Shown here: piece after piece, positions 6,231 through 63,017 of the stretch | How the letters are laid out: every line of letters begins with the position of its first letter | Position numbering within the stretch: position 1 is the stretch's first letter | Source of the DNA: Flaccisagitta enflata | Taxonomy: Eukaryota | Length of the DNA stretch: 64,000 nucleotides | Direction: 5' to 3' | Assembly: GCA_965153355.1 (NCBI GenBank) | Contig: OZ231126.1 | Coordinates: 49,290,001-49,354,000, forward strand | Notes under the pieces: generated by a model | Told to the model about the DNA's origin: nothing | The model's input: the letters and a program-made list of their open reading frames with translations, nothing else | The model's database searches: none | Position numbers and translations under genes: made by a program

Positions 6231-6489
6231 ATATGACTAAAAAAAGCTCAGGAAGATAAGCTGAAAAAAATGCTCAGAAAGACAGACAGAAATACTTACA
6301 GACTTCCAGACAGGCTGAATGACAGCCAGATAGTTACTTATCTCTCTTTTTGTTTGTGTGTGGATCTACCATTTCAGATCATGTGATGTGGTTATCGTGA
6401 AGATTCATGAGATTGGCGGTACCAAAGCTTCCTTCATAAAGAAAATCAGGTCATGTTAATTGTCTGATGATTAGTGACTTGATTGAAAA

Positions 6490-25100: not shown

Positions 25101-25534
25101 AGAGATGATGGCTGTGGCTGGCCCAAAAATAGAATTTGCTGTACTGAAGATCACTATGCCGCTGAGCAATTTAGACCAAATTTATGCTGTTCTGAAAGGA
25201 TTTTCAGCTGCGCCAGATGCCGCCAACATGCGTTTCCCCTTTGTTTAAACTATAAGCAATTGAGTTGATGAGAATGTCAGAGACATAAACTCACAACAAT
25301 GACAGAAGTTTTCCATTTTGGCATTTTGCCCAAAAGGTATGTGAAAGTACCATTTTTTAGACAGGGAGTATGTAAATGTTTGGGGATGTACATTCTTGCC
25401 CCAAAATATCAATATTGAAACCATTTAAAATATCATTTTGAGATGACCACCTGTTAGGCCTGGCTGGCAATTTGGGTGCCGCTGCACACGGCCACCCTCA
25501 TGAAGCACCTCCCCACCCACCCATGGTCACCTCC
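22155..25534. mobile_element. ~3.4-kb non-coding composite fold-back insertion interrupting gag (mirror copy ~43101-46393)
   Basis: ~1.1-kb inverted arms (22408-23530 vs 24400-25534) with internal ~180-bp sub-repeats, a 20-bp minisatellite and a nested HINE. The gag peptide HKTDGDICGGS occurs on both sides. Confidence 0.8.
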
Positions 25535-41600: not shown

Positions 41601-42760
41601 TGAAGTTGTCCCGCGGTTTCGCACCGGCGATCAGCCATGGTAAAATAACACACCACTCATAAAATTAACTTAGTAATCTAAGAATGAAAATGGCGATCTT
41701 AATCTAGGGTGACACCAGGAAAAGAAAGGACTGATAAGGAAGGCAAATGAATGACAGAAAATCATCAGCACATGATTCACACAAAACTAAGCTGAATCTA
41801 GAAATATCCGCTGCTGCCATATCAATGTTCAATCAAACGTAATCAAGCCATGAATCATCAATCACAGCAATGATGCATAGATATAGGACAATAATAAAAT
41901 GTTCCCGCAAAAAATCCCATTCAGATGACAAAATACATATTAAACTATTCAAGTTATCAAAATTTTGTCATGTCAGGAAGACATATTATTTAAACATGCC
42001 GTTATCAAGACATCAAGATTCACGACCTGTAATACTCAGCTGAGCACGGCTAGTTAAACTGCGAGATCAGCTATGATACGCAGGAAGTAAAATAATCATA
42101 TGAATTTAGCTCTGCGCAACCAAAAATGCTGTCACATTAAAAAATCACGCCAAAACAGCAGCTAACAGCGATGGCTTGCAACCTAGGGGTAAAAATGTGA
42201 AGCTAGCTATGAAAAATGACACAAAATCTGTCAGCACAAATCAAAAACTAATGCAGAAAAATGAAAACGCTGACCGAAATGGAAAAAGATCAAAGAACAC
42301 AAACGTAATAAAGAACGCAACGAAGGTAAAACGAACAATACAAAAAAGTAAACATCAAATCGTGATCAGGCAACACAGAAATGCTTTATCACAAACGTTA
42401 TCAGGCGCGACACCAGCATCGCATCGGGCAACAACTTTATCAGACCGGTGGCAGCATCGGAGCACAAGTAGCGGTGAGCTGAAATAGCCTTGAGTACAAA
42501 AATAGCATTGGAAAGAAGCGAGATTCAGTGAAGATGTGAACTAGCCGACTGTTCAGCGGAAACGAATAGAAAGCAAGACAACAGACCATTTATAAATAAA
42601 ATGAATCCATATCACACTCTTAATGTAACATCAGAGCAAGAGCACAAACGATACAGCAGCACCTCCGACAAATCACTGCACCACTGCTACAAAGGGTAAA
42701 CACAAATCACGAGTAAAAGTAAAGATCAATAAAACTGGAACCATAACAGAAAGGAGTGGG
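35640..42760 (+). other. Highly corrupted reverse-complement copy of 25790-35630 (probable low-accuracy long-read sequence)
   Basis: Collinear homology throughout, but ~7.1 kb versus ~9.8 kb, with dense small deletions and no surviving long ORF. Confidence 0.85.
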
Positions 42761-45700
42761 CAGACAAAGATAAAGACAAAGATAAGGACAATGGGTTAGT
42801 GGATTCCAGTGAACATGAGGATTTAGACACAACTAACAAAGCACCAGACCCAAAATTACCCAAAAGAAGGGGTAGAAAGCCAAATCCAGAAACCATAATA
42901 GTAAGAAACAATGAAACAGAGATGAAAGCAGACGAAGTTTTTCCAAGATTGGAAGAACCTCTAGAAGGCAAAGTATTAGTGCATAAAACAGATGGTGACA
43001 AAACTGTGGTGGGTCGACAGATATGCCACAGTACCGTTAGTTAATGAAAGCCGGCGAGACAATCAATTTCAAAACTCCAAAAGGAAAGGATGAGATTCTA
43101 CAAAAAAAATGACGAAAATGGCCACCATTGATTTTGGGGCAAGAGTGTATCCCAACATGACATATTCTGCCCAAAAAATGGTATTTTCATCAATTTTGGG
43201 CAAAAAAATGCCAAATAACAGTCCTACCGATTGTTGTGAGTTTAGGTCCCTGACACCATCAACTTCAATTGCTTATAGCTTCTAAACAAAAAAGGTTGGA
43301 AAAACGCGGTTGGCAGCATTTGAGGGAGAAACTGAAAAATCCTTTCAGGTAGCACAAATTTGACTAAATTGGTTCATAAACAGCGGTACAGTGTATCTCA
43401 AAGTACAGCAAATAGCAAATTCTATTTTTTAAGCTCTTTCACAGCCATAACTTTGATTGCTTATAGCTTCTAAACGAAAAAAGTTGGAAAACCGCGGTTG
43501 GCGGCATTTGAAAGAGCTGAAAAAATCCTTTCAGAACAGTCCAATTTGGTTAATAAACAGCGGTACAGTGATCTCTCAAAGTACAGTGAATTTTGAATAT
43601 TCAGTTCTCTCACCACCATCAACATTGATTGCTTATAGCTTCTATACAAAAAAGTTTGAAAAACGCGGTTGGCAGCATTTGAAGGAGATGGAAAAATCCT
43701 TTCAGAATAGCATGAATTTTGTCCAAATTGATTGATAAACAGCCGTACAGTGATCTCTCAAAGTACAGCTTTTTTTTTTCTTTCGCCACCAACAACTTTG
43801 ATTGCTTATGGCTTCTGAGCTAAACAAGTGACGCGAGGTCACAATATTGTTGCGGACGGATGGGCAGGGGCATCCATCCCCCTTACCCCAATCCCACACC
43901 CACCCTCCAACACACTCAGACACAAACAATTCCAATTGCAGCATCATGAATATGCGTTTTTGGGCAGCGGCCAGAGGACCTATGCTTTCACATATGCAGA
44001 AATTTCTCCTCCTCCTTCTTCTTCTCCTTCTCTGTACCCACCCCCCTACCCCCTTGAGGTCCAAATCCTAGCCTTGAGGCTCAAATTGAAGCCTCAAGGC
44101 TCAAATCCTAGCCTCAAGGCTCAAATCCCAGTTCTGAAGCTCAAATCCCAGCCAAAAAAGTGATTGATGGACATTATTTTTGTCAGAATTGATTGGATAT
44201 TTGCAATTGGTCAGATCCCTCTGAAGAAGTCTCTATTTTAAGTCGCGGACTTGTACCACCATTTATGACCGATTTTGATAAAATCCATGCTACTCTAAAA
44301 AAATATTTTAAGTCGCATGCTACGTGACTCCACCCCGCTTTGTTGGTCCGTCCGTCGGTCCGTCGGTCCATCTATCCGTTGGTCCATCACAATTTACTTT
44401 TTTGGGGTTCTTGTGGTCTTTGGCCTCACTGCTCCTGCCCAAGCGATCAAGTGACCTCAAATACAGCTCCCGCAAGCGAGGGAGGTAGCCGTGTATCCGG
44501 CCTTGTTTCAGCTCTTTCAAGTGCCGCCAACTGCGATCTTGTAACTTTTTAGTTGCGGACACACAAGAGGCTTTGTCCGTCCGTTGGTCCATCGGTCTGT
44601 TGGTCACGCTCGAGTTGTCACGCTTGAGTTTAAAAATGAATAGTAGCGAAAGCGTTAGATGGTTAGCGGTACCCGGAGGCTGGAATTTGATCCTGTAGGC
44701 TGGGATTTGAGCCTGGAGGCTGGAATTTGAGCCTGGAGGCTGGGATTTGAGCTTTGAGGCTGGGATTTGAGCTTCATGGTTGGGATTTTGGCTTCAATGC
44801 TGGGATTTGAGCTTTGAGGCTGGGATTTGAGCCTCGAGACTATGATTCAGGCCTTGGGACTAGGATTTGGGCCTCGTCGAGACTAGGATTCAGGCCTCAA
44901 GACTAGGATTTGGGCCTCAAGACTAGGATTACAGCTTCCTGGCTGGGATTTGAGCCTTGATGGTGGGAATGGGGCTTAGAGGCTGGGATTTAAGCTGGGG
45001 CTGGGATTTGAAGGCTTCAGGCTGGGATTTTGAGCTTGTGAGGGCTGGGATTTGAGCTTGAGGCTTGGATTTGAGCCTCAAGGCTAGGATTTGGACTTCA
45101 AGGGGGGGTGGGTACAGAGAAGGAGAAGAAGAAGGAGGAGAAATTTCTGCATATGTGAAAGCAATTGTGCAATTGTGCTGCAAGTGGAATTGTTTGTGTC
45201 TGAGTGTGTTGGAGGGTGGTTGGGGGTGGGATTGGGGTAAGGCTGGGGGATGGATGCCCCTGCCCATCCGTCCGCAACAATATTGTGACCACGCGTCACT
45301 TGTCTAGCTCAGAAGCCATAAGCAATCAAAGTTGTTGGTGGCGAAAGAAAAAAAAAAAGCTGTACTTTGAGAGATCACTGTACAGCTGTTTATCAAGCAA
45401 TTTGGACAAAATTCATGCTATTCTAAAAGGATTTTCCATCTCTTTCAAATGCTGCCAACCGCGTTTTTCTAACTTTTTTTGTATAGAAGCTATAAGCAAT
45501 CAGAGTTGATGGTGGTGAGAGAACTGTATATTCAAAATTCACTGTACTTTGAGAGATCACTGTACCGCTGTTTATTGACCAATTTGGACAAAATTTGTGC
45601 TGTTCTAACTGAAAGGATTTTTTCAGCTCTTTCAAATGCCGCCAACCGCGGTTTTCCAACTTTTTTCGTTTAGAAGCTATAAGCAATCAAAGTTGATGGT

Positions 45701-46422
45701 TGTGAAACAGCTTAAAAAATAGAATTTGCTGTACTTTGAGAGATCACTGTACCGCTGTTTATGAAACAATTTAGACAAAATTTGTGCCGTTTGGAAAGGA
45801 TTTTTTCAGCTCTTTCAAATGCCGCCAACCGCGTTTTTCCAACCTTTTTTGTTAAGAAGCTATAAGCAATTGAAGTTGATGGTGTCAGGGACCTTAACTC
45901 ACAACAATCGGTAGGACTGTTATTTGGCATTTTTTTGCCCAAAATTGATGAAAATACCATTTTTTGGGCAGAATATGTCATGTTAGGATACATTCTTGCC
46001 CCAAAATCAATGGTGGCCATTTTCGTCATTTTTTGAGACCACCTCCATTAGGCCCTGCAATTTGTCCAATTTGGTGCCGCTGCCGTACCCTCATGAGGCA
46101 TCCCTCCCACCCACCCACATGGTCACCTCCATACGTGTTTTTTCTATCCAACAAGCCCAAAAAATGTGCTTAATGTTGAAATTAAGAAGGAAATTTGAAT
46201 TTTTTAAGTATGAGGGTGGTAATTCAATTTTGCTCATTTTGAGGCTGAATATGTCAACTTTGTTGAGTTTTTGTAGTCTCTGGGCAACTCCCCTAAGCCT
46301 TCTGAGGCTTTTTTCCCATTGTACACACGTAATACCGCCCCCAAACTTCCGAGTGGCATGATCAAAGCAAAATCGGCATTTTTTGTACACCTCATGGTGA
46401 CATCTGTGGTGGGTCAACAGAT

Positions 46423-47739
46423 ATGCCACAATACCGTTATTTAATGAAAGCTGGTGAGAAAATCAATTTCAAAACTCCAAAAGGAAAAGATGAGATTCTA
46501 CACTTCAAAAAGATGATAAGAGAATTCATCCACACTATGAAATTAGCAGGCAATGACAAGATCAGAATGTATACAATCATAGCAGTCTTCAACACCATGG
46601 CAGAGGGCTACAACCATACACTCGAAGGCATGCTAAAACTCACTTGCACATTTCGCTCATTCCGGCACTTCAGTGAAATCTTCATCACCACACAGTGGCC
46701 TAATATTTACCAACATACCTTGTTGGTGGCCCGGTGGCTCTGTCAACTCCCGTCCGACTCGATAGAGACATACTATGAGAAACATGTTGCAGTCCATTCC
46801 GAATTGGACAGACCGATCGACGAGTCCGTCGAAGCTTTCGTAGATGGTATCCACAGCGATGAACTGAGAGAAAAAGTAAGATACCATGATTACGGCGAAG
46901 AAAGATCACTTGCAGACGTAAGAGAATATGCGAGCAAAATGGCTCAAAATCTGAAAATGGAAGCAGCAAGAAGAAAAGAAATTGCAAGTAGAGGCCGTGG
47001 CAACCAGCAATTTAACAACAACAACAACAGACGGGGCTTTGGAAGATACAACAGAAATAACTTCCAGAGCAGATCAATGAATAACGCAAGAAATAACGGA
47101 TCATTCGGTAGAGGTCAATCGGGAAATTTCCGAGGCCGCACAAGAGGCAGAGGCCGGATATTTAGAGGCCAAGGCCAAAGGTCTGTAGCCTCGGCCGACA
47201 GGACTCAATGCGGCAGATCGAGATCAATGAGCCGAAACAGAACATCCAGCTATGGATCAAAAAGATTCTCGAGATCAAGAAGTGGATCTAGGGCAGGGTC
47301 ACGGTCAAGCTCAAGATTCAGCTCGAGATCACGGGGTAGCTCGAGATCGAGACCCAGCTCTGGATCACGCTACTCATCTAGATCAAGAAGCAACTCAAGC
47401 CACAGATCAGGAAAAACAGTGAGATTCCAAAACAGAGGTCGTGGCAGAGGCAGAGGAGGTGCCGCTGTGAATAATGGCAGATCAAATGGAAATTACAGCC
47501 CATCTAAAGAGGAATCAACAAGAAAGAAAATGAAAGAATTTGGGCTCAATGGTTGCACAGGTTGCCTTTCCAGAGAGCACGTCTTTGACAGATTTAAATC
47601 GTGCGACAGGTCATGTCCGTTCTGTGAGAAAGAGTTTGATGAAAATGAAAATAGGCACTATGCATTCAACTGTAACAAGCGCCCGGAAGAGAGGCGAGAA
47701 TGCTTGCAAATTCTCAGCGAGCATGCTAGCAAAAGATGA
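46423..47739 (+). CDS. gag: Ty3/Gypsy Gag core: capsid-like region, RG/RS-rich basic tract, two Cys/His knuckles
   Basis: MHR-like QLPSDSIETYY...FVDGI; C-terminal CTGC-x4-H-x7-C and CPFC-x10-H-x4-C; directly upstream of the protease. Confidence 0.85.
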   Translation: MPQYRYLMKAGEKINFKTPKGKDEILHFKKMIREFIHTMKLAGNDKIRMYTIIAVFNTMAEGYNHTLEGMLKLTCTFRSFRHFSEIFITTQWPNIYQHTLLVARWLCQLPSDSIETYYEKHVAVHSELDRPIDESVEAFVDGIHSDELREKVRYHDYGEERSLADVREYASKMAQNLKMEAARRKEIASRGRGNQQFNNNNNRRGFGRYNRNNFQSRSMNNARNNGSFGRGQSGNFRGRTRGRGRIFRGQGQRSVASADRTQCGRSRSMSRNRTSSYGSKRFSRSRSGSRAGSRSSSRFSSRSRGSSRSRPSSGSRYSSRSRSNSSHRSGKTVRFQNRGRGRGRGGAAVNNGRSNGNYSPSKEESTRKKMKEFGLNGCTGCLSREHVFDRFKSCDRSCPFCEKEFDENENRHYAFNCNKRPEERRECLQILSEHASKR

Positions 47740-47743
47740 CTAG
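47737..47743 (+). promoter_or_regulatory. Putative stop-codon readthrough signal UGA-CUAG between gag and pol
   Basis: TGA 47737-47739 is followed by CTAG and the frame stays open into the protease (47848 is +108 nt, same frame). Identical in the inverted copy (20786-20792). Confidence 0.75.
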
Positions 47744-50700
47744 CTGCAAGCAAAGATTCAGGACAGATCAAAAAGAAAACAGAAACGGACACGAAACGGA
47801 AAACGGTAACAATCAATACAATAGATGATTTATCAGGGAAATATTATGTGAGTGGATATGTGGAAGGAAGAATACTATGTGCTTTCATTGATACAGCGGC
47901 AGACTTAAGCCTTATCTCACACTCATGGAAAAGATATGGTAAAACCACCAATCTAAGAAAGAATATCAAAATAAGATCATTTGATGGCAAATCAAAACAG
48001 ATTTTAAGAAAGACTGTATCATTGAAAATTAATTTTGGTAACGTTGCAGTGAACTTGAAATTCTACCTATGCAAAACTAAGGCACCTATAATAGGCGTAG
48101 ACCTATTAAGGGACCCAAAATTGAATTTATCAATTAATACCAAAAATGAAAAATTCTATATTGATCAAAGATCAATGAAAACTGCAAACAATGAAATCAC
48201 ATCAGATGAGTTCTTGCATAACAGAATTGACCAAGCAAAAACTAACAATGAAATCCGCAGAGATAACACACGGATAAATTGGATAAGGTCAAAGCAAGAT
48301 TGCATATTGAAACCAAACAGCACAACAGACATCATAAGCAAATGTGATCAGAAACCAACAAAACATGAAAAGCAATCATTGTTATCACTATACGACAATG
48401 ACAACGATGACATATACATTCCATCGATGATAGTGTGGTCACCAGAAAAAGAAATTGTTATAACAATCGAGAACAAAACAGACCAAAAGCTGTTAATGAA
48501 AAATGGTACACCACTTGGTGAATTGAAACCATGTACTGACACCATAAATCACAGATCGGTCATGGCATTTGATTATCATGACATACAAGAAGCATTCAAA
48601 CAAATAAGAAATGAAAAGGCCGAAATAAATAATGCTTCTAAAGTTGAAAAAGGCGCCAAATCAAAAACATACTACGTGAATGAGTGCACTATCAAATCAC
48701 TAGTCGACAAACATTCATACACAAAAAGAGTGCATTCAGAAAATAATCCTACCTGTAGGTTAATGAATAGCGCAGCGATTGAAGTCGGCAGCCAAAGTAG
48801 CGCCGAAAAAGCCAAAGGAGGTAGGATTGACGCCTCCGGCTCCAATGAGTCCCACGCGCTTAAAGCGTTTCGGGCGTGCGACCGCGTGGAAGACCAAATA
48901 ATCGAGAATACCGCGCACAAATATTCACTAAGAAGTGAACGCGGAGATGAAAATATTCCAATCGCAGGTACCGAACAATCAGGCATGCCTGTAAATAAGA
49001 AAATTCCGGATAAAGTCAATCAATACAGTGATCATCGCCTATCAGGGGGCGAACTTGCAAGCAATGTTGTCAAAAATGACAACGACAGGCGCCGCCGGGG
49101 TCGACCTGAAAGGCTGAAGAAAGGACGTCCACCAGATATATCTATATATAAAAATGCTTCCGAAGGTCAAACAGACGGTCTAGTAGCCCGCGAAGAACCT
49201 ATAAAGGAAAGCATTAGTGAATACAGTAAAAACCTCGAGGAACAGGAACGCAATGATCAAAATACCCAAATACCACCTGCGTTACCTGCAGATGAAGAAC
49301 CGATGAGATTATCAGAATTAATCGGAATGAATAAAGTGCCATCTGAAACACTTACCAAATGTTACAAAGATGGCATTACCATAGATCTTGATCTAAATGT
49401 GAACGAACCTGACATTGATATAGATGAATCACCAATCAATGTCGATTATGAAAGAACAAGAGGTCAAGATTTCAAATACTGGCCAAACAAACATGAATAT
49501 TTGAAACAATTTGACCTAACGTCAGTTGAAGGCAAGGATAGGGAAAAACTGATCAAGATTTTACTAGATTTCAATCACATTTTCTTCAATGAGGACAGAC
49601 CTGACCAATTCTTTAAAGGCGTGGAGATGAAGCCAATAAAAATCAAATTGAAAGAAGACGCTCCTCCATAAAAGAAAGAAGGACCAAGACGCATCAGCTC
49701 CTCCAAACTCCCATACTTAAAGGCTCACCTGAAGCAGATGTTGGAAAGGGGAATCATTGAGGAGATGTCTGATGACGTTGACTGTCACATGTCGCCAATC
49801 CATGTCGTTCTAGAATCCAGATTCTACAGCAGCCTTAAAAGAAATGTAATAAAATCTAGATTCTGTCTTGACAATCGCGTTTTGAACAATTCCCTAGCTG
49901 ATGTGCAATTTCCCTTGCCTCTGGCAGAGGAGTTCAGGAGAGAAGTGGCCAAGGATGGCTACACTACGTTCAGCAACTTTGACGCTTCCCAAATGTTCTA
50001 CCAATTCAAAATAGACCCAGAAAGCGTCAGGAAATACTTTGGATTTTACGCCCTAGGTAGAGTATACCTACTAAAAAGATTGGCTATGGGCCTAAAAACA
50101 AGTATCAGCTATGTGCAGAAATTTATGGACAAATGTTTCAGATCACACAAAAACTGTATTCCATTTGTTGATGACCTCAGCATCCGGTCAAAAACCATAA
50201 ATACACACTTAAACATTGATCTCCCACTAGCGCTCGCTATCTGTAGTAAGTTTAATATACTTCTTAATCCTAAGAAGTCAGATTTACTCAAAAATGAAGT
50301 GCGCGTGCTGGGATTCCAGCTGGGTAGATCAAGTGAATCAATAGCTGACGAAAAAAAGACAAAAATTAAGGAAATGACATTTCCTGAGACCAAGAAAGAT
50401 GCAATCTCAAAGGCAGCATTCTTTTCATATTTTCTGCCTGTAGCGCCTAAATTGTCACACCTCATGGCACCACTCAGAAGACTGGCACACCCAAAGACAA
50501 GATTCAAACCAACAGAGTCGGACAAGAAATCATTCACAGACCTTAAAGAATACTTGTTGGACGATGAAGTGGGTGCAGTGAGAATGCCATCAAATGACAA
50601 AGAGGCCACAATCCTCATATGGACAGACAGCAGTAGCACATCAATCGGATGCATCATAACTCAATTACTGCCACCACTACCAGATTCCAAATTGGACCCG

Positions 50701-52914
50701 ACCAAGAGATATTTATCCATAGTGGGATGTTACAGCAGAAAGATTGAAGACAGTTGGTCGGTTTATCCAATTTGGATTCTTGAACTGACAGCCTTGGAGG
50801 AGTGTACGAGGAAGTTTTTTTGGCTGTTGGCAGGCAGATCTTTCTATGCTATTACTGATAATACTACAGTGACAGCATGGGCCTCACTGGATCACGTCCC
50901 CAAGGACGTGGCCAGGATGGTCCTGAGGCTCCAAAGATTTGATTACAGAATCCTATGGATAAAATCAGAACTAAACCTGAGCGACTGGATTACAAGGGTA
51001 CCAGTCGACAGCCCACCAGAGGCGAGGTTTCCAAGATTTTTGGCAGGCAGTATCTACGATGGTAAAGGCAAAAACATTCCATGGCAAAAATTATTTTGCA
51101 AAGCTACAGCTCAAGAAACTAAAGATTTCTTTACCAGGAAACGGCGACAGGAGCTGGCCCACGCAGTGGAGCCTGAGAACTTCATTATTCCAGACGAATG
51201 TGAAGCGGAACAAGAGGTGAAGGAAATCATTAACGCCTTGAAGTCGCCGCCGGAAGTCCACGGCGACAGCAGCGACTCAGCGACAAAATCCGCGAAGGAT
51301 GAATATGCGAAAGTCATAGCCGCATACTCCTTGACTGATGATCAGGTAGAGGGCGGCGAGAATGAACTGGAAGAAGATACAGAAATAGACAATGATATTA
51401 CAGCAAAAATTAAATTGCACAGATTCAAAGGTAATAGACTTGAAGGCGTAAAAAGTCTGCAAGAGAATGATGATGCAATTATGGATATCATTAGTCGAAT
51501 AAAATCAAACCAAAAAGATCCACCTAAAACAGAAAGTTTGATTCTAACCCCAGCATTGAAACATTACCTGAAAAACAAATCATTATTCAGGGTGAGTGAG
51601 GATGGTATTTTGCTGAGATTATGGCACAACAAAAACGGCAAAATTGACCAATTAATAGTAGTGGGTGAAAAGAAATTTCATCAAGTTGCGACAGAAGCAC
51701 ACCAACGTATTGAATCAGCACACCGTCACGCCGGTCAAAGAAGGACATTCCTAGCACTGAGCAGACGCTACTTTGCAATTAATATGCGCGCAATTATAAA
51801 TAAGGTAGTCAATAATTGCGCGACATGCAAATTAAACAAATACCCACGCACAAATGCTATTAAGACAGGTAACAAAATCGCCACAGGTTGCAATGAAAAA
51901 GGAGAGATAGACATCTTAGGACCTGTAGGCGGCTTTGGGTCATCCACCACTGGTCAACCACGCTACGTCTATTTTTATATAGACTTGCACAGTCGTTACA
52001 CAATCACAAAAATAATCCCCAGTTGTGCAGATAACCATATACTAGACAGTCTAATCTACACAAGAGACACACTCTGTGGACTGCCAAAAATATTGCAAAT
52101 GGACAACGCACTTTGCTCATCAAACAGTAATTCAGCAAAATTCCTTAGAGAGAGAGGCGTTGAAATCAATCATGGCATGGCAAACATTTCACGCTGTCAG
52201 TCAGCAGTCGAAAGGTCCATAGGCACATTAACAAGACTAATCTGTAGCCTAAGGACGGACAATCCAAAATGGTCATTTACCAGAATTGTAGCCGAAGCCA
52301 CATATATTGCCAATTCAACACCACACACAAGCCTTCCAAACTCACTCTCACCTAAAGAGATCCATTTCAATGTCGCTCCATCAGATTTCCTAATCCACCA
52401 ACATGAGAAGGATGAAATGAGCGACGACGCAGCGGGCGCCGCGCGAGCTGCGAGCCGTGCCACGCTGTTAAACGATGTGAAAAGATCCCTAAAAAGAAAT
52501 GGAAATACAGGTGTGACTGATTATACTAATAAAATCAGACCAGGAATGATATGCTTGAGGAAAAGAACATCTTTTCCCACTTCAAGCCCAAGAAAATTAT
52601 GTTACAAGATAACTTTTGAAGGCTACATGGTCACATCAAAGGTAGCAACAAATTCATTCCGCTGCAGGAACATAAAAACCAATCAAGAATCAATCATTCC
52701 AGGTGATCTATTAGTCAAAATGAAAGGTCTCACCGAAAATGAAGCCATCGAGCTGATAAATGAGATGGAAAAAGTAGCCGCAAAAGAAGCAGAGGCGACG
52801 ACTACCCCAGCCAAACAAGGGGTAAGACGCTCAACAAGAATAGCCGCCAAAAAGGATAAAGCGGCGCCAATAACAGATCCAGACTTGAGCGCATTCTTTA
52901 CAGTCCATCTCTGA
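47740..52914 (+). CDS. pol: Ty3/Gypsy Pol: protease - spacer - reverse transcriptase - RNase H - integrase (one in-frame TAA at 49669-49671)
   Basis: PR FIDTAADLS; RT RFCLDNR, NFDASQMFYQ, LAMGL, PFVDDL; RH WTDSS...ELTAL...ITDN...SDWITR; IN H..H..CATC and DILG / QMDN / VERS (DDE). Order RT-RH-IN indicates Gypsy. The 607-aa and 1058-aa ORFs are in the same frame. Confidence 0.95.
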
Positions 52915-53026
52915 TTTCTTGTTATTATAGTTTTCTTGTTATTATAGTTGGCTACTTTTAAGGAAAAAGAAATAGACGGGGCCTAAAAGGATAATGAATT
53001 GAATAAAATCAAGAATTAAACTGCCC

Positions 53027-54840
53027 CTAGACATAAGAAGTGCCAACTCGAGAGCGTTGCTCGAGTATCTCATTATCCGTCAGATTGCGCCCTTCGCCAA
53101 CTGGCGGCTGACGAGCGTTCACGCCATCGTCCATGGGGACGCCATCAACGCCGCCACCGAACCGCCGATCACGGAAATCCTTCAAACGGGCCCAGAGGCC
53201 ACTGAACCAGTTGACCATATGGGTGACCTTTTCCAGATGTCCGGTCACGGCAGCCACGGTGACGACAATCAAGGCCGCCCCCAGGATCGGATAAGCGATC
53301 CAGCTACGCCAACCACCAGATGACTCGGAGGCGGCCACCAATACAGTGGGACCGGGCGCCACTGTACAGGGGACTTAGTGAACAAGTCCAAACTGGACTG
53401 GAGCTTTTAGAAAGCTTCCAAAAACAAAGTATCATGTTTTTTATTTTAATAAATTTCAAGAAATTAAGAAATGTGCACTCAGACTGGAAAATGAGGCTGA
53501 CTCCACTCCAAATAAAAGACCAGTCACAAAGGAAAATCTCCAAAAAAGACTGAAGAGGAAATGAAGGCCTAAACCACATTGGCCATGGAGCATAACATAA
53601 AAGGACCGGCCTCCCCTGAGGTAAAAAGACAAGTCTGAAATTAAAAAGCCGAAAGAGAAATATTTAAACCTATATTAAACCCGCCGGAGCTAACATGAAA
53701 AATTGACCTGTAATGCCAAAACATATGAGATTAATAAATTATTAGCACAAGAGACACAACTGAAATGGCATTAATAAGAATAAGATCATCAGGTCAATAC
53801 GAGAGGACATAAAAACCAATTGTCTATGCGGGTGCCACAGAATCACCATCGGCGACAGACACAGATTCATACGGTATTTCTCTATCAGACTCATTTCCAA
53901 GAGCGGCACGAGCAAGGCCAGGACCGAAGCCTTGAGAGGCAACCACGTTTTCAAGTGCTGACTTAATGCAGGCCTCCAATCTGTAAATACAAATGATTAA
54001 GTTTCAAAACCAGAAAATCATGCCCTGCAAAGTGAATAATTATGCCGAATGCATGAACCTGTAAATAAAGGATTAGACAGAATAGAAGCAAAAACTTACT
54101 CCAATCTAGCCGCAAAAACGTCGCGAGGGTCGCGAGTATGCATCCCGTCGCAAGGCAAACGCAGTCCATCATGATGCGTCGAGTCCGCGTTGGACCGACT
54201 TTTGAAACAAGCGATTTCCGAATGATACTCAGGTAGGGCACTGCATTGGCGACAGCGACGGTAGCTGATACCATATTCTTCAGTCTGATTGACATCGTCC
54301 GATATTATTTCTTGAACTGTGTTACGAAGGAAATTAGCGTTCATAGGAACGCAGCGCGAAAGTCCAGCGCTATGATAATAGGCCATGCGATAAACGACGA
54401 GCATACACGGCCCATTTTCCTCGCTGAAAATAAAATGGCCGCATTATGACGACAATACTGAACGAACCGCATGCGAAAGAAAAAAAAGCGTGGCCGAAAA
54501 ATTGCAAACTTACTCGTATCCTATCTCTTGGAGAAAAGCCTCTTTTCCACCATCTAACAAAGTCTTAATAGAGACTTGATTGCGAGAGGCCCATTCACGA
54601 ACTGCATATTTCAACTTGGCCTGTGTAAATATACGCAATCAGTATTAAAGACCGACGACGTGAAACGAAATATTCGTGACCGACGATCGAAACCGAAGAT
54701 AAAAAGAGACACACCGTCGGTGATTCATCCTCAGAGGAACGTGAAAATGACACGTAATGCGTAGAGTTGGCCGATCGCGAGCGTCGCATAGAGGCGCTTT
54801 GCGCAGAAGCGACGAGTAGAAACAATAAACAGAAGAGCAT
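53027..54840 (-). CDS. Antisense five-exon gene encoding a predicted 341-aa type I membrane glycoprotein
   Basis: Exons 54840-54715, 54620-54514, 54423-54100, 53980-53847, 53361-53027. All four introns are GT..AG with pyrimidine tracts, and phases 0,2,2,1 join into one open frame. N-terminal signal peptide; TM segment WIAYPILGAALIVVTVAAVTG. Confidence 0.72.
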
Positions 54841-55374
54841 CTTCGATGGATGTAATTCGAAAAAGAGAAGACGTCGATATGAAGACTTTGGACTGATCGT
54901 CCCGAATTATTCGTACGTTATATTTCACTTGTGTAAAGAGTGACCAAGAATTGAAATGAAAACTTATGAAAAAGAAAAGCAAAAATATTAATTCAGAAAA
55001 TAAATTTATTTTAAGAAATGTAAAAAGAAACACAATTCTTGGGAACTCAAATTGAATGATATTATGTTTATTATAATTCTCACATAGAAAGTGTCAAATG
55101 ACCACCCGAAATGTTCTTTAAAAACTCTTGAAGGTCAAACCAAAAGTATTTCGCCGACGAAAAAAATTTTACACTTTAAAACCTTAAAATGTTATGAATA
55201 CCGAAAATACTCAAATTGTTACAATATTTGCCGATACGACTCTCAAGACCATTTTAGTCATACGTATTGTTATTACTACAATTGTTACTTGAAATTAATT
55301 CTCTATTTGACCGTTAAGATATTATTGTTATATAAAAGACTCCGCTCAACTGAATCAAGCAGACTCTTTTTGTC

Positions 55375-55596
55375 GGGGGGGAGAGTCATAAAGGGTACCG
55401 CTCGACCAGAGAATAGAAATGCCAGACTCCGGAAATCATTTCTTATGATTATCGGATCAAATTCCAAGAATCAAGGAATATAAAAAGCTTGATTCGGTTT
55501 GAGAAGGACCTCTTCTATCGGAAAAATTCCTCTTATTATTTCCTCTAACAGTCCAACAGTCCTTCAGTTGCTTATCGAGATAGCTAATTCTCAACT
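55375..55596 (+). mobile_element. Putative polypurine tract (55375-55383) and short 3' LTR (~55384-55596, AGT...ACT)
   Basis: GGGGGGGAG immediately followed by AGTCATAAAG; TATAAAA at ~55479; unique sequence ends ...CTCAACT exactly where the satellite begins. No 5' LTR is in the window for comparison. Confidence 0.5.
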
Positions 55597-56550
55597 CACC
55601 TCTAGACTATCATGCTGACCATCATTTGCTCTTACATCATCTCACCTCTAGACTATCATTCTGACCATTATTCGCTCTTACATCATCTCACCTCTAGACT
55701 ATCATGCTGACCATCATTTGCTCTTACATCATCTCACCTCTAGACTATCATTCTGACCATTATTCGCTCTTACATCTTCTCACCTCTAGACTATAGATCA
55801 TCGACACTGGCTAAAAACCAATTGGTTATCAAAAGTTTCGTTTCCCTTAAATGTCTTCCTATAAGTTTCGACATCGTCACTGCTAAATGTCATTGCCGTC
55901 ATGCCATTTCCGTTTCGTTTCTACATTATGCAACTGACTGTAAGATGTGCTCTTTGAAAATTGGTTCCCTCCCAGTCTCAGTCTACACATGTCACTGATA
56001 TATGCTTTGTATATGCTTTGAGTATTAACAAAGGATGTATGAGTGAATTGATTAATGAATGAATGAATGAATAAGTGAATCAGTGAATGAGTGAATGAAT
56101 GAAAAATGATATGCTCGTACCATTTTTCCTTTTGGTAAGAAACAATTTGGTAATTCATCCTCTTTTTAGTCAAGAAATTTCTATGCATCACTGCCCCTGC
56201 CTAGCCACATCACAGCCCCTGCTTTACCATGTTTCTGTCCACCCTCATAATTGCCCCTGCCCACACTCAAGCGAGTATCCTGCCTTGTAAAAAGCCTCAT
56301 AAAAGGATTATGTCCAACAAAAGAAAACAAGGCAAAGTAGGCTATTATAGGCGCCATTCACATAGTAGAATGAAAGTGTTTTCAACTGACCAACCAACCA
56401 ACTAAACAACCAACAGACACAACCTTACAAAGATTTGCTATTGCACGCGGAAAAAAACATTGTTTGGACTCCTTGTAAACAAGGACAGAAACAAACGGAC
56501 TAGGAGAGAATCTTGTCAGTGAGCGAGGAAAAAAAATCGTAGGTGATCCA

Positions 56551-56588
<38 letters not shown>

Positions 56589-56896
56589 AAACGAATGAAA
56601 TATGAAAAGTCTGTCTCTCTCTCTTTTTCTTCACCTTTTCCTTTGTCTGTCAGTCAGTAGGTCGTGACGGTTTTTGACCATGATGTCGATTGACCGACAC
56701 CATGGGGTGTGACTGTCGATTCCGACAGTCACGACATAAGTTCTCCCAACTCTACTCTAGACTACTATGCTGACCATTATTTGCTCTTACATCATCTCAC
56801 CTCTAGACTATCAAACTGACCATTATTCGCTCTTACATCATCTCACCTCTAGACTATCATGTGCATGCTGACCATTATTCGCTCTTACATCATCTG

Positions 56897-58576
56897 CAGG
56901 CCTTTTTTTAGTGATTTTTTTTGCAGAGCCAACCGGGCTCTCTACTCGCAATTTTACAGAGCCCGACAAAAAAACAGTGAGCCCGGCAAAAAAACAATAC
57001 TGGATAAAAGGCTTCCCAAGTCGTGTGTGGGTGGGCAGGGGTAGTGACAAAATTGGCTAAAAAACATTTGGGCAGGCGTAGTGACATAGAAATCACTTAC
57101 AGGGAATACCCTGCCTACCGGGACGAAAGAAAACGACATATCTCTGCTTCTAAAAATGACGGATCAACTGTTTCAGAGAGAGTTTTTGCTCCAATTTCAT
57201 TATCTATAAACTTTATTATGGTGCGATCAATACTTTGGCCGCAGTATTGCATCCAAATTGTAAAATCTGGAATCATAAAAATTCGAGGTTTTGATGTTTG
57301 AACAACACATCTTCTTTCTCTTGCCAAATCTAGACAAATTGAGCTAGTATGCTCGGGTTGGTCTTGAATGATAGATAATTTGATGTAGTTTTACACTCCA
57401 CCAGTCAATTTGCCTACTTGTCATAATTTTTGGTAATCTAACCAAAATACATGTAAAAAAGTTGATAGATAGTTGATAGATAGTTGATAGATAGTTGATA
57501 GATAGTTGATAGATAGTTGATAGATAGTTGATAGATAGTTGATAGATAGTTGATAGATAGTTGAATGATAGATAATTTGATGTAGTTTTACACTCCACCA
57601 GTCAATTTGCCTACTTGTCATAATTTTTGGTAATCTAACCAAAATACATGTAAAAAAGTTTAATTTTTATCTCTTTCTTCTTTCAATGAATAACAAATTT
57701 TAATGGTAGAACCTTCGGTATCAATTCTTAAAGCTTTTTCATGTAACTACATAAATTCCGTTTCAATTTGAGTATTTTTACCCAATTTCTGTTGCAATGG
57801 TTAACAATTAAGACAATATTCACAGAATTTTCAGATAAATCATCAAAATTAGTCATATTTGGGATTTTTTTTCAGTCTGTTCGTGTACCTTTGGTATGCA
57901 ATCTAGTGGCAATTTTTTTTTAATGACATAAAATTGGTTTTAAAAAAAGGATCTGTTTTCAGATTATTTTTTTCATTTCTAGAGGAGAAAATACATCGTT
58001 TTCTTATGTCCCAGTTGGCATGGTACTCCCTGTATAAACGAAAAAAAAACCAGTGTTACTGACCAACAAATGGACTAATTAATGGACGGATCAATGGACA
58101 TACAGACCTACAGATGGACAGGCCGCCCAACATAGTGGGTTATAGAGTCGCTTGCACACAACTTGAAAAAAACTGAACATTTTACCTAATTCTTTTAAAA
58201 TGTGTGGGCCTCATGACAATGCCATCTTACAATAGCAATTTTTCCCCTGTCTGATCTCATGGTAGAAATAGAATTGTTTCAAAGAAGGCAAAAATCATCA
58301 CATGCTAACTTTTTATACCATCAGTATTAGACACATTTACACGAAAACAATGAGCTTTACTTGTTGATCAATTTATATTTGACGAGTTGACTTTGGAAGA
58401 AATTCATTTTAGTCATTCTTAACTTTGCAAGAATCATCCGATCCATTTGAGTTCAATACATGGCGTCAAATCTGAGATAGCCAGCCGGGCTCAGAGCCAG
58501 CAAAACATGAGTCATGAGAGCCCGACAACAAAATAGAGAGCCACGGGCTCGCGGGCTCGCTCTAAAAAAAGGCCTG
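56897..58576. mobile_element. Non-autonomous TIR DNA transposon (hAT-like) inserted in the satellite
   Basis: TIR CAGGCCTTTTTTTAG ... CTAAAAAAAGGCCTG and subterminal GAGCCCG/CGGGCTC motifs at both ends; no clean TSD seen. Confidence 0.65.
57365..57660. repeat. 11-bp tandem repeat (AGTTGATAGAT)n between two ~100-bp direct repeats
   Basis: Array ~57460-57563; flanking duplication 57365-57463 / 57562-57660. Confidence 0.9.
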
Positions 58577-58828
58577 ATTATTCATCTCACCTCTAGACTA
58601 CCATGCTGACCATTATTCACTCTTACATCATCTCAACTCTAGACTACCAAGCTGACCATAATTCGCTCTTAAATCATCTCACCTCTAGACTATCAATCTG
58701 ACCAATATTCGCTCTTACATCAACTCACCTCTAGACTATCATTCTGACCATTATTCGCTCTTACATCATCTCACCTCTAGACTATCAATCTGACCATTAT
58801 TCGCTCTTACATCATCTCACCTCAAGAC

Positions 58829-59140
58829 TAGGGCGGCTACCTGGATGGTCAAATGTGGTCAAATTTCAGAACGCCTCAGCCAATGTCATATTTAAAAAGG
58901 AAATGAGGCAAGCGGAGATCAGTATCTGGAAAGAAAGCCCGCAAGGCAACACTATAGAGTGTCAATGGGCTTAAAATTGCTCTCCTATACTTTACCATTG
59001 TGTTGCTGTGTGGATTTCCTGATCAAATACCGACCTCTGCTTGTCTGATTTACTGCCCAAATGCCGCTTAGCATGTATGGTTTATATGGCGGAGGAATTT
59101 TAAATTTTGAGCCAAATCTACCCTTCAGGTAACCAGCCTA
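58829..59140. mobile_element. hAT-like MITE with 8-bp target duplication; 5' fragment repeated at ~59473-59582
   Basis: CTCAAGAC|TAGGGCGGCTACCTG ... CAGGTAACCAGCCTA|CTCTTGAC; both flanks are one mismatch from the satellite's CTCTAGAC. Confidence 0.75.
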
Positions 59141-61134
59141 CTCTTGACTATCATTCTGACCATTATTCGCTCTTACATCATCTCACCTCTAGACTACCAT
59201 TCTGACCATTATTTGCTCTTACATCATCTCACCTTTAGACTATCATTCTGACCATTATTCGCTCTTACATCATCTCACCTCTAGAGTATCACGCTGACCA
59301 TCATTCACTCTTAAACATCATCTCACCTCTAGACTATCATTCTGACCATCATTTGCTCTTACATCATCTCACCTCTAGACTGCCATGCTGACCATTATTC
59401 GCTCTTACATCATCTCACCTCTAGACTATGAATCTGACCATTATTCGCTCTTACATCATCTCACCTCAAGACTAGGGCGGCTACCTGGATGGTCAAATGT
59501 GGTCAAATTTCAGAACGCCTCAGCCAATGTCATATTTAAAAAGGAAATGAGGCAAGCGGAGATCAGTATCTGGAAAGAAAGCATCATCTCACCTCTAGAC
59601 TATCATTCTGACCATTATTCGCTCTTACATCATCACACCTCTAGACTACTATGCTGACCATTATTCGCTCTTACATCATCTCGCCTCTAGACTATCATGC
59701 TGACCATCATTCGCTCTTACATCATCTCACCTCTAGACTACCAAGCTGACCATCATTCATTCTTACATCATCTCACCTCTACTTGCACCATTTTGGTTTC
59801 CACTCGTCGGCATCTCCTGTTAATCCCTCTATCTCTTCCTGAATCATCATTCTGACTATCATCTCAGCTTTTGGGCAACGGCCTCGAAGGGGACAAAGTC
59901 CTGTAGAACACAGGGGGACTTTTGGTCATCCTTCCGTCCATCCCTCCGTCTGCCCTTCCATCTGTCTCCGTCTGTTTGTCCATCCTATCAGACCTGTCAG
60001 GCCTGAAATCTGCCCTCTCAGGTCTAAAGCTCAGACCTGAGATCTAGCCTCTCAGGCTTGAAATCTGCACTCTCGAACCTAAATTTGCCCACTCAGGCTT
60101 GAAAATCTCATTAAATTTAATCCAATCGTGATTATTTAGTCAATAAGTTGATTGACTCGATTGAGAAAATCATCAGTCAATTTAGGCGCACACGACTTCA
60201 GTGTGTTAGCCTTGTATTGAAGATGTTTGTGACAGGCAGACTTAACTTTTAAACTTGTCATCATTATATCTTATTTAGTTTCGACTAAGCAGTTTGGCAG
60301 TACAACTGACATTAGCTGATTCATTTTTTCTGGCATGGATACTATGACTACGAGGAGCCATCCAAGGAAAGTGGTCTCCCCATACGCCCCCTCTTGGGCC
60401 CCCTTCCCCCTTCGTCTTCCCGCCCGCCCCCTCATCTCTGTAACATTTTTTACCTCGGGGGAATACTAACAACCACCGACAAACAAACTACCATTTTCAG
60501 GCCCTCACCTCTCCTCTCATTCGCAGTAAATATTCCGTGTCATATTCCTCATCCTCATCCTCATCCTCATTCTCTTCCTCATCCTTCTCCTCATCGTCAT
60601 CGTCCTCCTGTTTCGTCTTTATCGTTGCCCCTGGGCGTGTTCATAGTGACAACATTGATCCCTATTTTTCCTATCAATGAGTTGACAGCGTGAACACGTT
60701 TTCAGAAATTTCAGCTGCGCCACTTGAAAGTGAGCAAAGTGAGTAGCCTAGAGAACAGAATAAACATTGAAGCGAGCTTACTAAGGAGAGTATTGCTTAG
60801 CGAGTGAGCGGGGTGAGCAGTGGGAGCGAACAAACTGAGCGAGCGACCGGGTGGCTGGTTTAAAACGCGGTTTTCTCCGTGTAGAAACAAGCTCTCTTTG
60901 GCATTTTTTCCGTCTCCCGGTAGCCTCATTTTTCATCTTTTGCGGTCGTCCTCCTTCCTCCTTTCCTCCTCCTTCTTTCCTCCTTTCCTCCTTTCCTCCT
61001 TTTCTCCTTCCTCCTCTTGGTTTCATCTTAAAGATATTGAATTCTCGGTTCTATCGGTTAAGTCAGAGTGCCCCAGACCCATTCTACAAGTTTTCCCCCC
61101 TCTTTCTTCCTCTCTACTTTCTGTTTTCTTTTTT

Positions 61135-61895: not shown

Positions 61896-63017
61896 ATACA
61901 TCGGTGACTCCCAAGTTTGAATGGCGATCCCAAATTCTCGATGATCTCGATTCCGATGCACCGCTATCGATGATGATAAAGATGAAAACAAGGGTGCAGA
62001 AATCATCGATTTATGAGACTGCAAATAACGATGAGGACAATGAAGACGATAAAATCGGGAGAAAGAATGCCGCCAACAGCCACGAGTTACCTGTCACTAT
62101 GTAAACTCAATTTTTTTTAATGAAGTAAGAAACAGGCCTTGACGCAAAATAGGTAAAATTCTTGGCCTTGATTTCACACAAAAACTTGTCAACATTTGTC
62201 ATGTGTTACATCCATCTACCCTCGTTTTGTCTAATTGTCTGTCACTTGCCATCTCTTTAATTGTGGACACGCAACTCTATAAGAGGCTTATATCCATTGG
62301 TCCGTTGGTCCGTTGTTCCATTGGTCCGTCAGTCCATTGGTTTGTGAGTATGAGTCAAAAAGTGGAAAAACGCGCGTTTTAAATTTTTTTGGGTGTGTCT
62401 GTGTTAGAAAGGGTGTTGGGTGGGGTGTTGGGTGTGGATGGGGGTTGGATACCCCTGCCCACCCATCCGCAACAATAATGTGACCCCGCATCACTTGTTA
62501 ATTTGCAGGTTGCACTTAATAATGTCAGTCTGTTTCTTTCATCTCTTTGTTTCTAAGTATCTATATCAGTATCTATACGTCATTTCTCCTTCCACATGGC
62601 ATGGCTAGATCAATCTGACAAGAACTACCTATAAGAAAGAAACAATTGTCATGGTAAACCATACAGAAAGTCGTGCTCGGCAATAAGGCATCCCGCCTTG
62701 AAGGCATAGAATGAGTCGGTCCCTTCAAATGCCTTCTAGTGAAGCTTAACTGTACCCGCCTATAAGATCCAATAGGGTACTAATGAACGATCATCTGTGA
62801 TCTTTTTTTTTAGTTACGGACACGCAGCTCTATAAAGAGGCTTTGTCCGTCCCGTCCGTCAGCCCATCGAATCCCGTCCGTCCGTTGGTCAAATCGCGTC
62901 GTGGTGATCGAGTTGGAAAGTGTGAAAAACGCGCATTTTCGCCCCTGCCCACCGTCTGCAACTGGTACTGGCCGTGTATCCGGCCTTGTTAAGACTTTTT
63001 AAGCGGTCTTTTAAATC

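Follow-up and report, generated by a model that had tools for sequence, protein, structure and literature searches.

The window (the 64,000-nt stretch of Flaccisagitta enflata DNA analysed here) carries a set of coding blocks on the minus strand, right after the pol gene of a Gypsy-like element. With a probability of about 0.6, these blocks are read here as a decayed accessory module of the element, consisting of two genes that would have their own promoter and would encode membrane proteins serving the element. The first, gene A, is probably a spliced gene for a type I membrane protein, and the second, gene B, probably encodes a small membrane protein of 133 aa. Judged from the sequence, both antisense genes are broken in the window, and pol carries one nonsense codon.

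The plus-strand element and its surroundings

Gag-like, protease and RT-RNaseH-integrase open reading frames (ORFs) are present on the plus strand, the last one ending at position 52914 (Table 1). Pol displays the Pfam domains RVT_1 (67–217), RT_RNaseH (310–423), Integrase_H2C2 (670–724) and rve (756–834), and the order RT, RNase H, integrase is that of Ty3/Gypsy elements. The pol sequence has 40 relatives with identities from 99% to 22%, 36 of them from ENA assemblies. The TAA at 49669–49671 is a nonsense change in the window copy; relatives show Leu (4/6) or Thr (2/6). The gag-like and protease ORFs give no Pfam family. By eye, Cys/His-rich and D-T-A-A stretches are seen in the translations of these upstream ORFs.

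Table 1. Features on both strands of the window, in order of position
Feature	Position (nt)	Strand	Basis or remark
Second, inverted partial element copy	19103–26032	-	92% identical to 42565–49414
gag-like ORF; TGA end in frame with next ORF	46333–47739	+	ORF list, translation
Protease-containing ORF	47740–49671	+	Translation
pol, RT-RNaseH-integrase ORF	49672–52914	+	Pfam
Gene B remnant	53027–53435	-	10 relatives, tblastn, frameshift-aware alignment; exon 5 of the original prediction is 53027–53361
Exon 4, gene A	53824–53980	-	Open frame to TAG 53824–53826; original prediction ends at donor 53847
Exon 3, gene A; conserved Cys..Cys ectodomain block	54100–54423	-	Relatives P0053–P0058, alignments, hydropathy
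Exon 2, gene A; ORF without Met	54514–54620	-	3 variants in marine contigs
Exon 1, gene A; ATG and hydrophobic N-terminus (signal-peptide-like)	54715–54840	-	5 variants in marine contigs
Leader or promoter side of gene A	54841–55004		RNA-library contig, palindrome
46-bp tandem repeat arrays	55543–59800		Repeat search; past the antisense genes

The exon chain had been placed inside the element, between integrase and a putative polypurine tract. That placement finds no support in the window, where neither a repeat search nor low-stringency blastn over the 64 kb reveals an LTR pair bracketing 46333–55000, where 54841–55545 has no second copy, and where neither a PBS nor a PPT could be placed. Possibly the LTRs are located beyond the window, or rearrangement has removed them. 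The 46-bp arrays may represent the long region between pol and the element's 3′ end, or they may be flank. The inverted element copy takes in the region upstream, gag and a portion of the protease ORF; it ends before pol and so does not include the antisense genes. No second copy of the predicted antisense protein is found in the window by tblastn. Scanning the window for Rfam families and tRNAs gave no hits, and a 16-nt palindrome is situated at 54997–55012.

Coding evidence in the antisense exons

The original prediction joined five minus-strand exons into a 341-aa type I membrane glycoprotein. The arithmetic of this chain is confirmed: exons of 126, 107, 324, 134 and 335 nt are found at the coordinates claimed, separated by introns of 94, 90, 119 and 485 nt with the GT..AG ends claimed; they join in frame to give 341 aa and a stop, and retention of intron 4 does end the frame, at TAG 53824–53826. 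Every exon sits within its own stop-to-stop ORF. The exon 2 ORF contains no Met and is therefore readable only when spliced. A control for chance looked for ATG-to-stop models of at least 1023 nt with at most four GT..AG introns, and such models are present in 6/40 shuffles and in 29/66 other segments of the window, each of 1814 nt. Taken alone, then, the arithmetic of the exon chain is no better than chance, and it is because of conservation, not the arithmetic, that the locus is called real.

Marine contigs differ from the window at 12 exonic sites, and in the predicted minus frame nine of these differences are synonymous. When the differences are placed at random, 3.9 are synonymous on average and nine or more in 0.2% of trials (P about 0.002), and of the six frames the predicted one shows the strongest synonymous bias. 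By exon, the synonymous share is 2/5 in exon 1 (three nonsynonymous), 3/3 in exon 2, 3/3 in exon 3 and 1/1 in exon 5, so that all seven variants in exons 2, 3 and 5 together are synonymous. Variant density was dropped as evidence, introns (6 sites in 207 nt) and exons (12 in 492 nt) being much alike.

A search for exon 3 among 1.84 billion representatives shows six relatives with an E-value of 1e-3 or better, and exon 5 has 10 relatives at 0.01 or better with 51–98% identity; all are in marine assemblies. Conserved residues of exon 3 extend upstream of its sole Met. At its 3′ end the exon carries a conserved DPRD..RLE at the GTAAGT donor, and in three of the six relatives the ORF ends exactly at the ..RLE/RLR codon, with the stop inside the donor; in two of the six (P0057, P0058) it reaches its own stop past a hydrophobic helix, which speaks for two genes. 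Directly before the conserved block, all six display [Y/C/F/]-[S/R], which fits a kept ..AG acceptor. Thus the donor and acceptor flanking exon 3 appear conserved in relatives down to about 40% identity. Synonymous bias, relatives and the splice borders of exon 3 together support the central claim of an intron-bearing protein-coding locus, antisense and directly behind pol.

In the collection of proteins searched, the window's own exon 1 and exon 3 ORFs have no exact match. Nor does a search there find a protein of at least 189 aa related to exon 3, so that a full-length spliced product is not on record; this is weak evidence. Scans of viral contigs and of metagenome contigs with the P0001 and A1 queries gave no related loci.

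At the RNA level the predicted junctions are not borne out. Three marine RNA-library runs show no spliced joints at the locus; one contig (X2, record 6, 54497–54889) is unspliced through intron 1 and other RNA-library contigs extend into introns 2 and 4. Such unspliced contigs may stem from plus-strand RNA of the element, from pre-mRNA or from DNA. The RNA-library contigs cover the antisense gene and do not cover pol 51500–52914. One marine contig runs on the plus strand to 55004 and continues with 18 A, possibly a poly(A) tail, possibly a plain run of A. It was rejected as proof of an element poly(A) site because it lies within the 16-nt palindrome and in a single contig. The poly(A) RNA run X5 gave 0 reads from the locus, with about 6% of the run sampled.

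The frequency of equally long chance models, the lack of spliced RNA in these runs and the lack of a Pfam family could be taken to mean that there is no gene and that the exon chain is a product of chance open frames and GT/AG dinucleotides. However, the synonymous bias falls in exactly the predicted frame, and 16 relatives over two exons share conserved Cys residues, helices, sequons and exon ends. A chance origin is hardly credible.

Damage in the window copy and the two-gene reading

Alignments and hydropathy show that a stretch of exon 3 at about 54216–54266 is out of the ancestral frame in the window; in all six exon 3 relatives this same stretch forms a hydrophobic membrane helix. Residues of about 133–149 of the 341-aa model (approximately 17), including two Cys, come from the out-of-frame stretch. 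Thus the seven ectodomain Cys of the predicted type I protein are in part an artefact of damage, these two not being in the ancestral frame.

The last coding block is damaged as well. In nine of nine full-length relatives it starts about 24 codons upstream of the acceptor at 53361, with a conserved Met, and in 8/9 an N-x-S/T sequon adjoins this Met. The window retains an ATG at 53433–53435, followed by a TAA at 53407–53409 and by frame changes near 53392 and 53366. Downstream of the damage the remnant shows an intact membrane helix, a basic amphipathic stretch and a tail ending in S-Y-V. Given the shifted frame of the helix and the damage where the last block begins, the exon 4/5 junction, which the original prediction had named as its least certain part, is therefore not ancestral. 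As the window copy is damaged and this join is not ancestral, the 341-aa type I product is unsupported, and the fusion of exons 1–5 is probably not a natural product.

The converse, that the window copy does express one five-exon gene for a 341-aa glycoprotein through the acceptor at 53361, the 24 upstream codons having turned into intron, is improbable. The exons do join in frame; exon 4 ends in phase 1, and both the acceptor at 53361 and one upstream of the conserved Met would suit the last block's frame. Relatives seemingly have the letters of the ..ACAG acceptor too, to go by their translation ..G-T-V-A-P, and a broken-start form of the last ORF is common, with nine variants of this 81-aa form in cluster 3 (11 members). 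Yet some 17 residues of exon 3 would be read out of the ancestral frame with loss of the helix found in every relative, the skipped codons are conserved as protein down to 51% identity, the exon 4 donor GTGATT is weak, and neither the RNA-library runs nor the chance control favours the model.

Under the preferred two-gene reading, exons 1–4 of the window would make up gene A, which would likely end at TAG 53824–53826. In intact relatives the spliced gene A product would be a type I membrane protein: its N-terminus would be hydrophobic, its ectodomain about 100 aa long, and a single membrane helix would lead to a cytoplasmic side that is basic. The predicted ectodomain contains two conserved Cys, and an N-x-T sequon adjoins the membrane. 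Gene B would be a single ORF of 133 aa with its own conserved Met and an N-x-T/S sequon at the start. Its product would have about 43 aa on the outside, followed by one membrane helix and an amphipathic basic stretch, and its tail would end in S-x-V. Both genes would be transcribed from a minus-strand promoter near 54900–55100.

Gene B relatives are 132–134 aa long with a helix at residues of about 44–62 (Kyte-Doolittle 1.95–2.34), and about 20 residues after the helix they carry the basic stretch R-L-K-D-F-R-D-R-R. They begin with M-D-N, M-A-N, M-V-N, M-T-T or M-N-M, and none has Gly at position 2. The tail contains an invariant N-[ML]-[TS] sequon (9/9). One cluster consists of 30 variants of the 133-aa ORF, and close variants of the gene family are found on contigs of up to 9597 nt.

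The same blocks could instead form, in intact copies, one five-exon gene for a membrane protein with two helices, exon 4 being spliced to a site a little way upstream of the conserved Met. The ORF of two relatives is open upstream of this Met, both times with L-L-V-N-M, a sequence that could conceal a pyrimidine tract together with a correctly phased AG, but a phase match has a one-in-three chance. The exon 3 relatives that end at the donor (3/6) argue for a longer chain, since more exons must follow there; the conserved Met with its adjoining sequon, on the other hand, suits a start codon and an outward N-terminus. Topology also points both ways. The invariant tail sequon would face outward in a two-helix protein, and within 15 residues of the gene B helix the charge bias is weak; against this, the exon 3 helix is clearly N-out/C-in, its N-flank being acidic and its C-flank basic in 6/6 relatives, and the C-terminal S-x-V would face outward too. 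If this tail is a PDZ-type motif, its partner could not reach an outward-facing end. On balance a single two-helix gene is somewhat unlikely.

Indirect evidence of linkage to the element family, and known systems

The antisense gene set seems to travel with the pol family across lineages in marine organisms. The evidence is indirect and consists of equal contig sizes in nt: of 19 sizes of gene-family contigs of at least 3000 nt, three are identical to one of 87 pol contig sizes. At 5703 nt a pol with 99% identity pairs with a gene B with 98%, at 5707 nt the values are 75% and 51%, and at 12132 nt gene A exon 3 with 41% identity pairs with a pol at 50%. In a jitter control the mean number of matches is 0.18, and three or more occur in 0.06% of trials. 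The size 5703 nt is common to three proteins, including two different gene B types, which the single gene B copy of the window leaves unexplained. The shared sizes 5703 and 3089 nt suggested that the window might contain a second gene B paralogue, but none was found.

This linkage bears on whether the antisense blocks are ordinary host genes beside a truncated retroelement, not borne by it. The window fits such an origin in that no LTRs bound the element and the second partial copy is without the region; RNA-library contigs cover the gene and not pol, and the S-x-V tail and a Pfam match below the cut-off (PF14654) look cellular. The matching sizes with pol of three lineages, in which the long ORFs are intact, argue against it, as an old fixed insertion would not keep long pol ORFs intact. 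Dozens of close variants are found on long contigs, and the pol and gene B stops are only 112 nt apart, tail to tail. Searches for relatives of exons 3 and 5 and for longer proteins related to exon 3 gave no named cellular homologue. A host origin is accordingly improbable.

Similarity searches leave the idea of an envelope or fusogen without a match in Pfam, PDB profiles or the ESM Atlas, and no similarity to a known envelope protein was found for the gene A and B sequences. With four window exons and 10 relatives, Pfam gave nothing above the cut-off, TRP28 and PMD being absent; the PF14654 match (mucin-like juxtamembrane, E-value = 1.8e-4) lies over a helix. PDB profile searches with A1 and A2 gave E-values above 0.2 only, and P0053 in the ESM Atlas found generic small membrane proteins (best score 0.88). 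The AlphaFold2 model of A2 has a mean pLDDT of 60 and is confident for one helix only.

Sections of PMC7264820 and PMC11963269 describe antisense ORFs between pol and the 3′ LTR in the plant Ty3/Gypsy elements Grande (gene23), RIRE2, Retand and PvRetro13, which are kept across copies and lineages. As given there, gene23 is driven by a promoter of its own, a long region with tandem repeat arrays separates pol from the 3′ LTR in Retand, and the products (TRP28, PMD, SMC) are nuclear or bind DNA. In the text of both papers the word "intron" is absent. The coding blocks of genes A and B likewise lie after pol and antisense to gag-pol, as in the aORF-3R arrangement, and the 46-bp arrays resemble those of Retand. 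In contrast to the plant ORFs, the predicted products are membrane proteins, one gene would have three or four introns and the host is marine.

The env genes of errantiviruses and of further Gypsy elements that carry env, and ORF3 of the rotifer elements Vesta and Juno are also third coding regions after pol that encode membrane proteins. Vesta4 ORF3 is short (220–230 aa), with two hydrophobic regions and Cys residues, and all of these genes are in sense and expressed from the element's own RNA, according to parts of PMC5408684 and PMC13524379. Unlike this env-type sense expression, genes A and B have all their coding blocks on the minus strand. Large fusogens of recognisable families are what canonical env genes encode, whereas the genes behind pol here are antisense, have introns and fit no family.

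Gene B resembles in layout the sORF2 of the Drosophila MDG1 group and the reovirus FAST proteins, which are small and single-pass with a short outside part, a helix and a basic amphipathic cytoplasmic stretch. Relatives of gene B agree in layout and fall within the size range of such proteins (about 70–200 aa), to the extent that their predicted topology is correct. An N-terminal myristoylation motif or an ectodomain hydrophobic patch, as in FAST and sORF2, is not found in them. The likeness would be one of layout, with no sequence similarity found or expected. In excerpts of PMC11952523, sORF2 is about 70 aa, in sense, upstream of gag and unspliced, often with an MGxxxS/T myristoylation motif, whereas gene B is 133 aa, antisense and after pol, starting with M-[DA]-N and having an N-x-T sequon and an S-x-V end.

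Retroviral antisense genes are similar in that the minus strand codes for them close to the 3′ end, their promoter sits at or within the 3′ terminal region, and one is spliced. HBZ is a spliced nuclear bZIP factor, and the ASP of HIV-1 is membrane-associated. HTLV has an antisense promoter in its 3′ LTR, as mentioned in part of PMC7264820. These genes show no sequence relation to those of the window, where the promoter is a predicted one.

That the antisense gene set seems to travel with this Gypsy-like family suggests an unusual accessory function. The membrane proteins would serve the element most plausibly in trafficking or in the passage of particles from cell to cell, a proposal to which the homology searches lend no support. 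Introns in gene A would persist in new copies because they are antisense to the element RNA and hence would not be removed from it before reverse transcription; the survival of antisense introns through retrotransposition, as the original prediction argued, fits the conserved intron-bearing locus. That a widespread marine Gypsy-like family has in this module an envelope-independent device for cell-to-cell passage, made up of a spliced glycoprotein and a FAST/sORF2-like protein with introns kept in one gene, is a speculative and rather unlikely extension.

The membrane-protein products and at least one intron-split gene set the locus apart from the antisense ORFs of plant Gypsy elements. If borne by the element, the locus would clearly exemplify, in nature, introns that come through round after round of reverse transcription because they are on the strand that is not the transcript. 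Under the same condition it would be a further type of accessory membrane module, next to env and the recently described sORF2, among the means by which retroelements may get to other cells. Members of the family occur in marine assemblies only, and the family marks an undescribed group of active-looking elements.

Exon structure and coding evidence

The original prediction placed five minus-strand exons of 126, 107, 324, 134 and 335 nt next to pol, joined by GT..AG introns of 94, 90, 119 and 485 nt. These coordinates hold, the exons join in frame to give 341 codons and a stop, and with intron 4 retained the exon 4 frame stops at TAG 53824–53826, as was also claimed. Each of the five exons has a separate stop-to-stop open reading frame on the minus strand. 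A chance control scored the longest ATG..stop chain allowing up to four GT..AG introns; of 40 shuffled versions of the region, 6 gave a chain of at least 1023 nt, as did 29 of 66 other window segments of 1814 nt. The exon arithmetic by itself is no evidence for a gene.

Sequence variants were taken from contigs of three marine metatranscriptome runs, 90–99% identical to parts of the region. Nine of the 12 single-base differences between window and marine contigs within model exons are synonymous in the predicted frame (7/7 in exons 2, 3 and 5; 2/5 in exon 1). The same changes placed at random give a mean of 3.9 synonymous, with nine or more in 0.2% of trials, and no other frame beats the predicted one for synonymous count. 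The exon-3 open reading frame has six relatives among 1.84 billion representatives (23–67% identical) and the last exon has 10 (51–98% identical), all from ENA or Logan assemblies. Exon 2 lacks any Met, and in exon 3 conserved residues precede the sole Met, so both need splicing. Three of the six exon-3 relatives share a common ..RLE/RLR end codon, the stop falling inside the GTAAGT donor, and all six show Tyr, Cys or Phe and then Ser or Arg directly ahead of the conserved block, which matches expectation for a kept ..AG acceptor. With donor and acceptor signatures kept, the exon-3 relatives are therefore unspliced, DNA-like sequences that share exon boundaries.

No splice joints were found in contigs of the three marine metatranscriptome runs. 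A contig of one marine RNA-library run (X2 record 6, 54497–54889) crosses intron 1 unspliced and other RNA-library contigs reach into introns 2 and 4. The unspliced contigs may represent plus-strand element RNA, which would retain antisense introns, pre-mRNA or DNA. One contig tracks the plus strand up to 55004 and then runs on as 18 A; a poly(A) site here is not taken as proven, as a 16-nt palindrome is centred on this position.

Open reading frames and model exons in the window
Feature	Positions	Strand	Basis or remark
Gag-like ORF	46333–47739	+	ORF translation; same frame as the next two ORFs
Protease region ORF	47740–49671	+	ORF translation
RT-RNaseH-integrase ORF (pol)	49672–52914	+	Pfam
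Model exons 1–5	54840–54715, 54620–54514, 54423–54100, 53980–53847, 53361–53027	-	
Helitron-type ORF pair, one frame	6487–15108	+	Pfam; single in-frame stop 11662–11664 between them
Long ORF series, 154 to 847 aa	25498–36019	-	some split by single in-frame stops

Linkage to the Gypsy-like element

The pol stop and the minus-strand stop are 112 nt apart. Within the 64-kb window there is no LTR pair and no second copy of 54841–55545, and a second, inverted partial copy (19103–26032, 92% identical to 42565–49414) ends ahead of pol. The window alone cannot say whether the antisense locus belongs to the element. The gag-like ORF stops at TGA 47737–47739, in frame with protease-pol, as might be expected if pol is expressed by stop-codon read-through.

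In what follows, gene A denotes exons 1–4 and gene B a 133-aa block covering exon 5. In the protein collection, contigs of 5703 nt yield the pol P0003 (99% identical), the gene B form P0073 and the gene B relative P0137; contigs of 5707 nt yield the pol P0005 (75% identical) and the gene B relative P0138 (51% to the window); and contigs of 12132 nt yield the pol P0173 (50% identical) and the exon-3 relative P0117. Of 19 gene-family contig sizes from 3000 nt upward, three coincide with one of the 87 sizes of pol contigs; random jitter of contig sizes gives a mean of 0.18 matches, and three or more in 0.06% of trials. Because the pol ORFs are long and intact, the pol lineages evolve as elements and not as an old fixed insertion. 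The antisense locus is probably element-borne (probability about 0.8), with linkage that is indirect, via equal contig sizes. Two different gene B types occur at both 5703 nt and 3089 nt, for which the single gene B copy of the window does not account.

Decay of the window copy and number of genes

In 6/6 relatives a 19-residue hydrophobic segment (Kyte-Doolittle 2.19–2.76) stands right after ..V-N-Q-T-E-E-Y; a hydropathy scan showed the segment to be absent there from the window model. By frameshift-aware alignment the window is out of the ancestral frame from near 54260–54266 until near 54216–54223. An alternative frame across 54216–54266 still reads a helix-like stretch, and marine contigs part from the window exactly at 54268, their loose ends encoding a hydrophobic stretch. 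Two of the "seven ectodomain Cys" originally predicted arise from the out-of-frame stretch. The last-block ORF starts at a Met about 24 codons upstream of the predicted acceptor in all nine full-length relatives, followed by an N-x-S/T sequon (8/9) and a conserved ..L-D-L-F-T-K-S-P.. peptide. In the window counterpart of these 24 codons the frame shifts near 53392 and near 53366, and a TAA lies at 53407–53409. At pol TAA 49669–49671, relatives read Leu (4/6) or Thr (2/6). The evidence does not support a 341-aa type I "env-like" product.

Closely related versions of the 133-aa ORF (P0059–P0082) show few differing sites in mosaic combinations, and for every one of four 81-aa forms there is a 133-aa counterpart with identical last 81 residues. 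The pattern suggests many recombining copies, or differing gene calls on like sequences.

Two genes, a reading about as likely as not, are favoured over one, which is less likely. Gene A would then encode a type I membrane protein and stop at TAG 53824–53826, and gene B would be a single-pass protein of 133 aa. The conserved Met with which the 133-aa block opens counts for two genes. The first helix, with an acidic N-side and a basic C-side in 6/6 relatives, is clearly oriented N-out/C-in, and the exon-3 ORF ends shortly past it in two distant relatives. Gene B ends in S-x-V in 9/9 relatives, which is meaningful on the cytoplasmic side only and which may be a PDZ-type ligand. Against two genes, the charges flanking the second helix show little bias when only 15 residues are considered, the frame is open upstream of the Met in two relatives, and exon 3 ends at a donor in three, so that at least one further exon follows.

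Surrounding sequence and known systems

The inverted similarity of 19103–26032 with 42565–49414 spans 7 kb and goes on to ~35000 versus ~36200, with weak collinear inverted similarity running inward to ~36000; the element therefore occupies one arm of a palindrome-like arrangement. Upstream of gag is a foldback-like structure (43104–44153/44999–46034) with inverted 1-kb arms of 88% identity, which have 185-bp repeats and enclose a core of 20-bp tandem repeats; beside it a 99-nt 5′ piece of gag is duplicated (43004–43102 versus 46404–46502). A dispersed ~200-nt repeat, possibly a small non-autonomous element, has four copies 70–73% identical (43–250, 3399–3604, 24045–24248, 44305–44508). Near similar sequence lies a separate repeat pair, ~80% identical (2791–2958 versus 62805–62990). 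The minus-strand ORF series displays no Pfam family, only Lys/Glu-rich coiled-coil-like and Ser-rich sequence, and a G-D-I-C-G-G-S stretch at the end of its last ORF recurs at the gag-like N-terminus; these ORFs may belong to an upstream portion of the element or to a host gene. The Helitron-type pair shows Helitron_like_N, DUF6570, PIF1 helicase and ubiquitin C-terminal hydrolase, and weakly GDSL lipase and endonuclease (Pfam).

Searches of Pfam, PDB profiles and the ESM Atlas gave no matching family, structure or cluster for the antisense proteins, and the AlphaFold2 model is confident for the helix only. The closest layout is that of plant Retand, Grande and RIRE2, in which antisense extra ORFs, with tandem arrays, occupy the interval from pol to the 3′ LTR (PMC7264820, PMC11963269); unlike those ORFs, the window locus encodes membrane proteins and has introns. 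Downstream, beyond the antisense genes, a 46-bp tandem repeat forms several arrays (55543–55900, 56744–56907, 58534–59800), which recall the Retand arrays. Gene B resembles small membrane proteins of FAST/sORF2 type in layout (PMC11952523) but differs in having no N-terminal myristoylation motif and in lying antisense after pol. No description of an antisense membrane-protein gene with introns in a Gypsy-like element turned up in the literature searched. What the antisense locus does is a matter of inference; the locus itself is a real, unusual accessory locus, seen in the window as a decayed copy.
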